Sequence record: PV857777.1
Reading direction: 5' to 3' (one strand)
Source: Escherichia phage Ec_O157kw
Length of the DNA: 64,000 bases
Shown in pieces: positions 1,540-3,532 of the stretch. Every line of letters begins with the position of its first letter. The stretch's first letter is position 1. The notes beneath the pieces are model-generated. The model ran no database searches. It was not told the DNA's origin and saw only the letters and a list, made by a program, of their open reading frames with translations. The translations under genes and the position numbers were made by a program.

Positions 1540-2079
1540 ATGAAAACATTTTTAACTGGCCCGTATCTATCCCTGATGAATGCTTTTACACACCATTCTG
1601 ATGCTAGAGTAGAAGAAATTTGTAAAAACGAATATATCCCGCCATTTGAAGAATTACTTAAACAGTACTGTACACTTCGTATAGATGGTGGACGTCAATC
1701 CGGTAAATCAACTGCTGTGACTAACTTTGCTGCTAATTGGCTGTATGACGGTGGAACAGTTATTGTTCTTTCTAATACTTCAGCTTACGCTAAAATTTCT
1801 GCAGGCCACATTAAAAAAGAATTTTCTCGTTATTCTAGCGATGATATTCGATTCCGCTTATTTACTGATTCTGTCCGTAGTTTTATCGGTAATAAAGGAA
1901 GCAAGTTCAGAGGTTTATCGCTTTCGCGAATTTTGTATATAATTGATGAGCCTGTTAAATCTCCTGATATGGATAAGATTTATAGTGTCCATATTGACAC
2001 TGTACACTACTGCTGTAATAGTAAATGTTGCATTGGTGGTATTACTCGTCCGCAGTTTTTCGTAATCGGAATGCAATGA
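1540..2079 (+). CDS. P-loop NTPase/kinase-like hypothetical protein
   Basis: 179 aa from ATG 1540 (SD AGAGAG); Walker A GGRQSGKST and Walker B-like ILYIIDEP; track ORF 1483 uses an upstream alternative start. Confidence 0.55.
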   Translation: MKTFLTGPYLSLMNAFTHHSDARVEEICKNEYIPPFEELLKQYCTLRIDGGRQSGKSTAVTNFAANWLYDGGTVIVLSNTSAYAKISAGHIKKEFSRYSSDDIRFRLFTDSVRSFIGNKGSKFRGLSLSRILYIIDEPVKSPDMDKIYSVHIDTVHYCCNSKCCIGGITRPQFFVIGMQ

Positions 2080-2405
2080 TGACAGACACACAGCTTTTCG
2101 AATATCTTTATTTTTCGCCAAAAACTATTAAAAATAAATTGGTGAATCATTTTGAAATTTTGGCAAATAATAACGTCTTGAGCGAATTTTATCCTAAGCA
2201 ATACAAATTACAAAAAGGTGTATTCAAAGGATGCAGAGTTTTGTGTACTGCTCCTAATGCAAGATTAATGAATAAAATTCCATATTTTACCATGGAATTT
2301 ATTGATGGACCTTTTAAAGGACTAATCACCCAAAGTTTAATGGCATATGATTCTGAGCCATTTTTAATTAAAGAACAATCTTGGATAAATTTATTTTCTA
2401 ATTGA
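2076..2405 (+). CDS. Hypothetical protein
   Basis: 109 aa; ATGATG at 2076 overlaps the upstream stop (translational coupling); no recognised domain. Confidence 0.5.
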   Translation: MMTDTQLFEYLYFSPKTIKNKLVNHFEILANNNVLSEFYPKQYKLQKGVFKGCRVLCTAPNARLMNKIPYFTMEFIDGPFKGLITQSLMAYDSEPFLIKEQSWINLFSN

Positions 2406-2411
2406 GGTTAT

Positions 2412-2774
2412 ATGAAAGCATATCAAATTCTTGAAGGCACACATAAAGGTACTATTTATTTTGAAGATGGTATTCAAGCACGAATTATTGTTTCTAAAAC
2501 CTTTAAAGAGGACTCTTTTGTAGACCCAGAAATTTTCTACGGTTTGCACACCCGTGAAATTGAAATTGAATCACAGCCTACAGTTAAAATTGAAGGTGGT
2601 CAACACCTGAACGTAAACGTTCTGCGTCGTGAAACTCTGGAAGATGCAGTTAAGCATCCGGAAAAATATCCGCAGCTGACCATCCGTGTATCCGGATATG
2701 CAGTTCGCTTTAACTCTCTGACTCCGGAACAGCAGCGCGATGTTATCGCTCGTACCTTTACTGAGAGTTTGTAA
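2412..2774 (+). CDS. Autonomous glycyl-radical cofactor (GrcA/YfiD-like; T4 Y06I-type)
   Basis: 120 aa; C-terminal ~60 aa ([60 protein letters not shown]) carry the RVSGY glycyl-radical motif and match E. coli GrcA as I remember it; 3' half is GC-rich with host-like codons. Confidence 0.85.
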
Positions 2775-2995
2775 TGGCAAAGATAATTATTGAAGGTTCT
2801 AAAGATGTGCTAAATGCTTTCGCCGAGTGGTTTAGTAATTCAGGCGAACAGCAATTTAATGAAGCATGGAATATGGGTGATATTAATGGAATTTATCCTA
2901 CGACAGAAATTTCTGTTCAAGGATATGGCATTCATGAACCTATTCGTTTAGTTGAATATGATTTATGTACTGGTGAGGAAGTCAAATATGATTGA
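2774..2995 (+). CDS. Hypothetical small protein
   Basis: 73 aa; ATG overlaps upstream stop (TAATGG). Confidence 0.55.
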   Translation: MAKIIIEGSKDVLNAFAEWFSNSGEQQFNEAWNMGDINGIYPTTEISVQGYGIHEPIRLVEYDLCTGEEVKYD

Positions 2996-3254
2996 AGATA
3001 TTAAAGGTTATAAGCCACATACTGACGAAAAAATCGGTAAAGTAAATGCTATTAAAGACGCTGAAGTTCGTTTAGGACTTATCTTTGATGCTTTATACGA
3101 TGAATTTTGGGAAGCATTTGATAGCTGTGAAGATGATGAACTCGCGAAGAATTACGCCGAAAGCCTCGATCAGTTAACTATTGCTAAAACGAAACTCAAA
3201 GAAGCCAGTATGTGGGCTTGTCGTGCTGTGTTCCAACCAGAGGAAAAATATTAA
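2988..3254 (+). CDS. Hypothetical small protein (vs-region)
   Basis: 88 aa from ATG 2988 (SD GAGGAA); track ORF 2952 is an upstream extension. Confidence 0.5.
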
Positions 3255-3532
3255 TGGCTCAATTAAGCGCAGGGTTTGGTTATGAGTATTATACTGCCCC
3301 TCGTCGTGTATCTGTTGCTCCTAAGAAAATTCAAAGTCTTGATGACTTCCAGGAAGTAGTCCGTAAAGCTTTCCAGGACTATGCACGTTATCTTAAAGAA
3401 GATTCACAGGACTGTCTTGAAGAAGATGAAATTGCTTACTATGAGCAACGTCTTGAACAGCTTAAAAACCTACATGAGGTCCGTGCAGAAGTTTCAAAGT
3501 CTATGAATAAATTGATTAGATTTAAAGAATAA
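3254..3532 (+). CDS. Hypothetical small protein (vs-region)
   Basis: 92 aa from ATG 3254 overlapping upstream stop (TAATG). Confidence 0.5.

Follow-up and report, generated by a model that had tools for sequence, protein, structure and literature searches.

We analyzed a 64,000-nucleotide (nt) stretch of Escherichia phage Ec_O157kw (sequence record PV857777.1; hereafter the window), in which six small open reading frames (ORFs) are packed on the + strand over positions 1540 to 3532, between a gene for an internal virion protein and regB (Table 1). By comparison with known sequences, we identify these ORFs as the orthologues of T4 vs.8, vs.7, vs.6, vs.5, vs.4, and vs.3, an early-gene block of Tequatrovirus. 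We read vs.4 and vs.3 as genes for two different sponges of immune signals (Acb2 and TadIV-1), vs.6 as the gene for a glycyl-radical protein of the GrcA type, and vs.8 as the gene for an ATPase of the ASCE type. The probability that we give to this explanation as a whole is roughly 0.9.

Coordinates and junctions are those of the + strand ORFs of the window, and T4 was compared through the annotation of its reference sequence (RefSeq), NC_000866. In order, the junctions between the six ORFs measure -4, +6, -1, -8, and -1 nt, the end of the vs.5 ORF overlapping the start of vs.4, while gaps of 135 nt and 59 nt separate the block from the genes before and after it. An earlier reading of the same DNA (the original prediction) had placed six tightly coupled ORFs between the internal-protein gene and regB, at the position of T4 vs.3 to vs.8. 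The ORF list returns all six with unchanged coordinates, the matches of the flanking genes to PHROG 3155 and REGB_T4 confirm their neighbors, and the position is borne out by T4 gene order and by BLASTP, which gave identities to the T4 proteins of 95.5% for Vs.8, 98.2% for Vs.7, 97.5% for Vs.6, 94.3% for Vs.4, and 97.8% for Vs.3. The segment 1400 to 3600 matches 826 phage records, 489 of which cover at least 80% of the query; the best among the matches listed is 96.9% identical over the full length, and one further record is at least 99% identical. Given these 826 records and the T4 identities, the six ORFs are real genes rather than chance ORFs. Because the stop and start codons of the six head-to-tail genes overlap or nearly abut, the genes are most likely cotranscribed and translationally coupled. 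A sigma-70-like promoter, predicted from a consensus match in the gap before regB, would mark where the coupled block ends on its 3' side.

Table 1. Genes, motifs, and candidate regulatory features in and around the vs.8 to vs.3 block (window coordinates; aa, amino acids).
Feature	Position	Strand	Length	Description
denV	505-921			Upstream of the internal-virion-protein gene
Internal-virion-protein gene	931-1404			Upstream of vs.8; PHROG 3155 (1e-101), Pfam DUF7412 (1e-95)
Conserved leader	1408-1520	+		Candidate structured RNA; cross-phage conservation, pairing model
Leader, 5' hairpin	1408-1440			
Leader core, P1	1441-1444/1477-1480			Modeled three-way junction
Leader core, P2	1445-1448/1455-1458			Modeled three-way junction
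Leader core, P3	1459-1463/1468-1472			Modeled three-way junction
Leader core, junction GUAA	1473-1476			Modeled three-way junction
Leader, second conserved block	1502-1520			Complementary to core 1456-1472
vs.8	1540-2079	+	179 aa	Stand-alone P-loop ATPase, predicted ASCE/RecA-like class
Vs.8 Walker A, GGRQSGKST	1687-1710			Residues 50-58
Vs.8 Walker B and Glu, LYIIDEP	1933-1953			Residues 132-138
vs.7	2076-2405	+	109 aa	Start overlaps vs.8 stop (ATGA); PHROG 2049 (2.8e-54)
vs.6	2412-2774	+	120 aa	Autonomous glycyl-radical cofactor by homology (GrcA/YfiD-like; T4 Y06I)
Vs.6 radical glycine, G95	2694-2696			Within RVSGY, residues 92-96
vs.5	2774-2995	+	73 aa	Intact form; PHROG 1986 (9.6e-44, full length)
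vs.4 = acb2	2988-3254	+	88 aa	PDB 7UQ2; Pfam PF24729
vs.3 = tadIV-1	3254-3532	+	92 aa	T4 Vs.3 (90/92 identical); PDB 9WIW
Sigma-70-like promoter	3536-3564	+		TTTACT-17-TATAAT, TG upstream; consensus scan 10/12, consensus match only
regB	3592-4053			Downstream of vs.3; Pfam REGB_T4 (1.4e-68)
vs.1				After regB
vs				After vs.1
Macro-domain gene	4937-5416			After vs

The first gene of the block encodes a P-loop protein. The Walker A motif of Vs.8 includes K56 and S57, and its Walker B strand ends in D136 and is followed by E137. A hydrophobic strand ending in DE, with a catalytic glutamate (hhhhDE), is the hallmark of the ASCE class in the classification of P-loop NTPases. A word-indexed search with Vs.8 returned T-even relatives only, and an exhaustive search of 1.84 billion representatives with a profile brought the family to 41 proteins, nearly all of 165 to 185 aa, from which 34 diverse members were compared. 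A few divergent members excepted, these homologues conserve Walker A as GRQ(S/T)GK(S/T), a hydrophobic strand ending in D/E-E (mostly IIDEP), R113, (F)RG at residues 123 to 125, and the terminal sequences LTxxYLxLMxAF and PLFFVIGMQ.

PHROG 2, the terminase large subunit, matches residues 43 to 142 of Vs.8 (3.4e-6). Against the PDB, the family profile reached the ATPase domain of T4 gp17 (E 0.018 to 0.04) and uridine-cytidine kinases (E 0.2 to 0.4), and a search with the single sequence gave a weak match to the coupling protein TcpA alone. A Foldseek search with the AlphaFold2 (AF2) model of Vs.8 returned RAD51/RecA, DEAH helicases, KaiC, and F1-ATPase, so that the modeled fold is RecA-like. 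From the motifs, the weak profile matches, and the fold matches, we classify Vs.8 as a minimal ASCE (RecA-like) ATPase that is neither a terminase family member nor a kinase. The ASCE fold and the hhhhDE Walker B are common to Vs.8 and the ATPase domain of terminase large subunits (T4 gp17, Sf6 gp2), and the gp17 Walker A, SRQLGKT, closely resembles the RQxGK(S/T) of Vs.8. In contrast to terminase large subunits, Vs.8 consists of a single domain that ends at 179 aa without a nuclease domain, and it matched Terminase_6N below the threshold of that family. The P-loop region is also like that of the RecA1 domain of superfamily 2 helicases, whereas Vs.8 lacks a second RecA domain and helicase motifs beyond Walker A and B. 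The N-terminal helix LTxxYLxLMxAF and the C-terminal strand PLFFVIGMQ are peculiar to the small Vs.8 family. ATP hydrolysis by Vs.8 would employ K56 and E137 and would probably occur in complex with nucleic acid or a partner protein. A cluster of four cysteines (C158-C159-x3-C163-C164; CCNSKCC, nt 2011 to 2031) is present in T4-type sequences; it was considered as a zinc site of the family and rejected, being absent from homologues of 52 to 58% identity and beyond.

The original prediction had noted GxxxxGKST and hhhhDEP in this ORF, both of which we found and which are conserved in the family, and had regarded them as typical of small nucleotide or polynucleotide kinases. For such an enzyme, the acceptor of the ATP gamma-phosphate would be a nucleoside, a nucleotide, or the 5'-OH end of a nucleic acid. 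The canonical GxxxxGK[ST] P-loop and the length of 179 aa would suit a small kinase, and the uridine-cytidine kinases do appear among the PDB profile matches, though only at the E values given above and over the P-loop region alone. However, the acidic pair after the Walker B strand, in which E137 is nearly always kept, is the ASCE signature; terminase large subunits outscore kinases in both the PHROG and the PDB searches (gp17 at E 0.018 at best); Pfam and NCBIfam detected no lid or nucleoside monophosphate-binding segment in Vs.8; and no significant profile or fold match to a P-loop kinase family was obtained. Of the original prediction for this protein, the conserved motifs are upheld and the kinase family is not, and we consider a kinase very unlikely.

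The minimal ASCE ATPase described above has the length that follows from a start at position 1540. T4 RefSeq Vs.8 (NP_049732) is annotated with 219 aa, including a 40-aa N-terminal extension (our L001, 5794 to 5913) whose counterpart in the window is 1428 to 1539. The 135 nt upstream of 1540 could accordingly be coding; Vs.8 would begin where T4 RefSeq places its start or, as a 198-aa protein, at the ATG at 1483, and the stretch would be conserved in nucleotides because it encodes a protein N terminus. Besides the T4 annotation, the open frame of the window from 1483 and the extensions of ~15 aa on some database Vs.8 proteins speak for this possibility. Yet the window and T4 differ upstream of vs.8 by indels of 6, 1, and 7 nt, which put the T4 extension in another frame in the window, and the N-terminal extensions of database Vs.8 proteins cannot be aligned with one another. 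The PHROG 1488 profile (177 positions) covers residues 3 to 179 of the short protein, distant homologues begin at a conserved M-x-x-L-T, and the stretch before vs.8 is unannotated in many records, including T2, RB69, and RB18. Moreover, a core of ~48 nt from this stretch also occurs in phages without a nearby Vs.8 homologue. A coding upstream stretch is therefore very unlikely, and we assign the conserved start of Vs.8 to the ATG at 1540.

The T4 reference also departs from the window in vs.5. Compared with the window, T4 RefSeq vs.5 (NC_000866, our L001, 4382 to 4558) lacks 1 nt (TTTCG-CGAG; window, TTTCGCCGAG). Because of this deletion, the annotated T4 Vs.5, of 58 aa, matches the 73-aa ORF of the window over its first 18 aa only. 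The frameshift may be either a mutation of the T4 laboratory strain or a sequencing error in the reference. It is probable from these comparisons that the T4 reference annotation is wrong both at the N terminus of Vs.8 and in the frameshifted vs.5. Neither Vs.7 nor Vs.5 matched anything in Pfam, NCBIfam, PADLOC, or the PDB, and the only families that they hit are PHROGs of unknown function; matches to SurE and RsbU (E 0.04 to 0.7) were treated as noise.

Vs.6 matches Pfam Gly_radical at 2.3e-18 (67.1 bits, cut-off 22.2), GrcA (PDB 6OWR) at 9e-42, and the C terminus of pyruvate formate-lyase at 4e-26. Its last 60 residues, including the RVSGY radical site, are near-identical to those of E. coli GrcA/YfiD and to the C terminus of PflB, whereas its first ~20 residues are phage specific; the score against the NCBIfam equivalog for GrcA, TIGR04365, is 154.8 bits, under the cut-off of 170, with a differing N terminus. 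T4 Y06I, like E. coli YfiD, restores pyruvate formate-lyase that has been cleaved by oxygen (PMC8683613). The functional class of Vs.6 follows from its 97.5% identity to this experimentally tested protein, and we identify it by homology as a GrcA/Y06I glycyl-radical spare part for pyruvate formate-lyase, an identity that the original prediction missed. By analogy, Vs.6 would carry a glycyl radical and could replace the oxygen-cleaved C terminus of the host enzyme.

T4 Vs.4 is a cyclic GMP-AMP (cGAMP) sponge, since renamed Acb2, that forms hexamers with three bound cGAMP molecules and limits effector activation by the cyclic-oligonucleotide-based antiphage signaling system (CBASS) (PMC10449767). 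Vs.4 of the window matches Pfam PF24729, Acb2_Tad1_hairpin, over residues 7 to 83 (71.0 bits, cut-off 27; E 9.4e-20), and chain A of PDB 7UQ2, T4 "Vs.4," at E 4.4e-53, residues 1 to 88 aligning on 2 to 89 with 83 of 88 identical. In T4 Acb2, Y8A and the escaper mutation F82C weaken nucleotide binding (PMC12657218). Both Y8 and F82 are kept in the window protein and are invariant in an alignment of 27 homologues. The five substitutions relative to T4 (E13D, L44F, N46S, C50D, and F52L) fall in none of the invariant columns of this alignment: L44F, N46S, C50D, and F52L lie in the variable segment between the helices and E13D in a variable N-terminal column. Given the equal length, the equal genomic position, the 94% identity, and the retention of all family-invariant residues, we identify this protein as Acb2/Vs.4. 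Its ligand binding is predicted from the T4 protein: as a hexamer, it would bind 3',3'-cGAMP and other cyclic oligonucleotides and thereby keep CBASS effectors off.

The last ORF of the block, Vs.3, was recognized solely through a profile search of PDB sequences, in which it matched PDB 9WIW at E 4.9e-38 as a single sequence and at E 5.3e-61 with a family profile. PDB 9WIW is TadIV-1 of phage UPEC07, published in Nature Communications in 2026 (PMC13243611). According to the same work, Vs.3 alone among T4 proteins inhibits type IV Thoeris; with Vs.3 to Vs.8 each expressed separately, impaired type IV Thoeris immunity was reported for vs.3 only (PMC13243611). The T4 protein is a dimeric two-helix protein that sequesters N7-cyclic ADP-ribose (N7-cADPR), for which it appears to be specific, via a flexible N-terminal loop, and it has been called structurally distinct from Acb2 and other known sponges (PMC13243611). 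Long homologues of TadIV-1 (~90 aa) are active and short ones (~70 aa) inactive, activity having been shown for the T4 protein and ten further long homologues, and mutation has shown that R17, R18, and K24 matter in T4 TadIV-1 (PMC13243611).

The window protein is of the long form (criterion, >80 aa), as is the 92-aa T4 protein, and has the N-terminal loop. The two differ by N38K and T64E, both in the helical part, and R17, R18, and K24 are all kept in the window. In comparison, the crystallized TadIV-1 of UPEC07 (101 aa) has a 9-residue insertion in the N-terminal loop that is absent from the window and T4 proteins. In the AF2 model of Vs.3, which is of low confidence (predicted local distance difference test score [pLDDT], 59), residues 1 to 23 are disordered and helices span residues 29 to 53 and 57 to 91. 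We identify this ORF by homology as Vs.3/TadIV-1 and not as an anti-CBASS protein. By analogy with T4, the dimer would sequester N7-cADPR by its N-terminal loop and so keep the caspase-like effector of type IV Thoeris off.

That Vs.3 and Vs.4 are instead tandem paralogues, Vs.3 being a divergent anti-CBASS sponge like Acb2, is extremely improbable and largely refuted: Vs.3 adjoins acb2, is of similar size, and has a predicted two-helix hairpin, two-helix structures occur in Acb2 as well (PMC13243611), and BLASTP of Vs.3 against Acb2 gives a short match in an acidic loop (19 residues, E 0.029), but hhalign, given 12 aligned Vs.3 sequences and the Acb2 alignment, yields a probability of 5%, Pfam Acb2_Tad1_hairpin has no match to Vs.3 at E up to 0.1, Foldseek finds no PDB match for the Vs.3 model, and T4 Vs.3 has N7-cADPR as its ligand, is dimeric where Acb2 is hexameric, and possesses a flexible N-terminal loop absent from Acb2 (PMC13243611). 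The original prediction had taken both ~90-aa ORFs as anti-CBASS candidates and had proposed aligning them to Vs.4/Acb2. When this was done, vs.4 aligned over its full length and holds as an Acb2 gene, while vs.3 aligned over those 19 residues only and drops out. As a guess at an anti-defense sponge made from position, the proposal was right in spirit for Vs.3 too, with the wrong family and the wrong target.

Several points weigh against the reading of the block that we prefer, two sponges together with a GrcA-type Vs.6 and an ASCE-type Vs.8. The five substitutions in Vs.4 and the two in Vs.3, all relative to T4, may have changed specificity. The operon structure is inferred from gene spacing and from the use of a "promoter of vs.8" in PMC13243611. 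For Vs.8, the matches to AAA, terminase, and PtuA families in Pfam, NCBIfam, and PADLOC all stay below curated thresholds (Terminase_6N, 15.3 bits against 22; AAA_14, 17.4 bits against 27), so that its class was assigned from motifs together with fold matches and weak profile matches; its AF2 model is of moderate confidence (pLDDT, 64; predicted template modeling score, 0.65; core residues 60 to 150 at 66 to 86). In addition, His replaces the Walker A Lys in two distant members of the Vs.8 family, so some members may not hydrolyze ATP.

Although the indels break the reading frame, identity to T4 is 87% over the 135 nt that separate vs.8 from the internal-protein gene. Their central ~40 nt are 85 to 95% identical by blastn in Vequintavirus, in Pseudomonas phage PsgM04F, and in the 44.9-kb phage Ivi; blastn also reports Campylobacter phage records for this core, matches that were not individually inspected. 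The core is near-invariant in Straboviridae, Vequintavirus, Pseudomonas phages, and unclassified phage contigs, and the window contains one copy against 0.01 expected by chance. In Straboviridae, the element always lies directly 5' of vs.8. Outside Straboviridae, no Vs.8 homologue is found near the core, and same-strand tRNA clusters lie 0.03 to 1.2 kb from it in 11 of the ~16 loci checked.

Scanning viral, genome, and metagenome collections by pattern yielded 39 distinct cores, 30 of which were aligned; exact long-pattern scans of IMG/VR gave two loci only. The consensus, …ACCUGUrAyAAGGUCGAGCCnnnGyGCGGUAA…, can be modeled as P1, P2 (ACCU-GUAAUA-AGGU), P3 (CGAGC-Cnnn-GYGCG), GUAA, and P1', with 90.8% of the cells of the 30 cores paired. 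The closing pair of P1 varies among the 30 cores (AU in 19, CG in 4, UG in 3, UA in 2, GC in 1, and another combination in 1), whereas the pairs of P2 and P3 are invariant or show one-sided changes only, an invariance that is partly forced, as the search patterns fixed P2 and P3 bases. A covariance model built from the core alignment scores true members at 54 to 76 bits and recovers RB69 at 58 bits, as against at most 23 bits for the pattern-only coding matches among those sampled. A metagenomic T4-like contig (OGVK01003213.1; our L124, 358 to 417 and 472 to 529) carries two tandem cores 114 nt apart; the second scores 42.6 bits, and its P3 is rebuilt from other sequence, CAGCC-CGC-GGCGG, and still paired. 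In 16 diverse Straboviridae, the long-range pairing between the core and the second conserved block comprises 12 pairs, 99.5% of them formed, with only G-C to G-U changes. This pairing and P2 plus P3 are mutually exclusive.

Rfam 15 gave no covariance match at E up to 10 for 1390 to 1560, for window positions 1 to 6000, or for two homologous loci, and ARAGORN found no tRNA or transfer-messenger RNA in the window. The minimum free energy of the window copy of the leader is unremarkable (z -0.64). We considered the leader as a homologue of T4 rnaC or rnaD and found no homology. Likeness to hammerhead, twister, and group II domain V, judged by eye, was dropped, since the leader, as we take it, lacks their defining cores. 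The short pattern AAGGTCGAGCCnnnGyGyGrTAA also occurs in ~30 Ruminococcaceae/Clostridia contigs from gut Firmicutes and in other metagenome-assembled genomes, where it is conserved, apparently protein coding, and without the ACCUGU arm; it was rejected as a relative of the core. One sampled Ruminococcaceae/Clostridia match gave no covariance-model match at E up to 1 and was treated as chance.

We treat the leader as a candidate structured RNA, a lead and not a finding, because its basis is one covarying pair together with strong sequence conservation across phage families. That it represents an undescribed, widespread phage RNA motif, and not the N terminus of Vs.8, is a tentative reading that we hold with more doubt than confidence. 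Since the core can pair instead with the second block 30 nt further on in T4-like phages, the leader could be a switch controlling the vs.8 to vs.3 anti-defense operon. Another option is that the motif is a stable small RNA, formed by processing, with a conserved host factor as its partner.

The surroundings of the block differ from T4 in several respects. The gene cut by the window start, which we take to be e by the sequence of T4 lysozyme, is followed by denV and a single internal protein of 157 aa (DUF7412, "ipIV"-like), while the T4 order is e, ipIII, ipII, denV. DenV is 78% identical to its T4 counterpart, against 94 to 98% for the vs genes. Because the identity of denV to T4 is so far below that of the vs genes, a mosaic boundary near 1404 to 1540 is suggested. 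Downstream, the macro-domain gene at the position of tk.4 is 58% identical to T4 Tk.4, with its neighbors vs.1 and vs at 100% and 97%; judging from these identities, it is another local replacement. Many GenBank records label homologues of Vs.8, Vs.4, and Vs.3 "endoribonuclease" or "RegB-like," as does the molecule name of PDB 9WIW. The label is without sequence support and has evidently spread from the adjoining regB.

The block as such is already known, the vs region of T4-like phages having been annotated, and its parts were described in 2001 (Y06I as a glycyl-radical spare part), 2023 (Acb2), and 2026 (TadIV-1). The sole item that might be new is the leader motif before vs.8, which recurs beside tRNA clusters in unrelated phages. 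What the region of Ec_O157kw brings together, by homology, is a pair of adjoining ~90-aa genes for unrelated small helical sponges of immune second messengers, the one countering CBASS and the other type IV Thoeris. With two different sponges side by side, Vs.8, Vs.7, and Vs.5 become reasonable candidates for further counter-defense functions, and the assays appropriate to Vs.8 change once it is read as a minimal RecA-like ATPase whose motifs resemble those of terminases.

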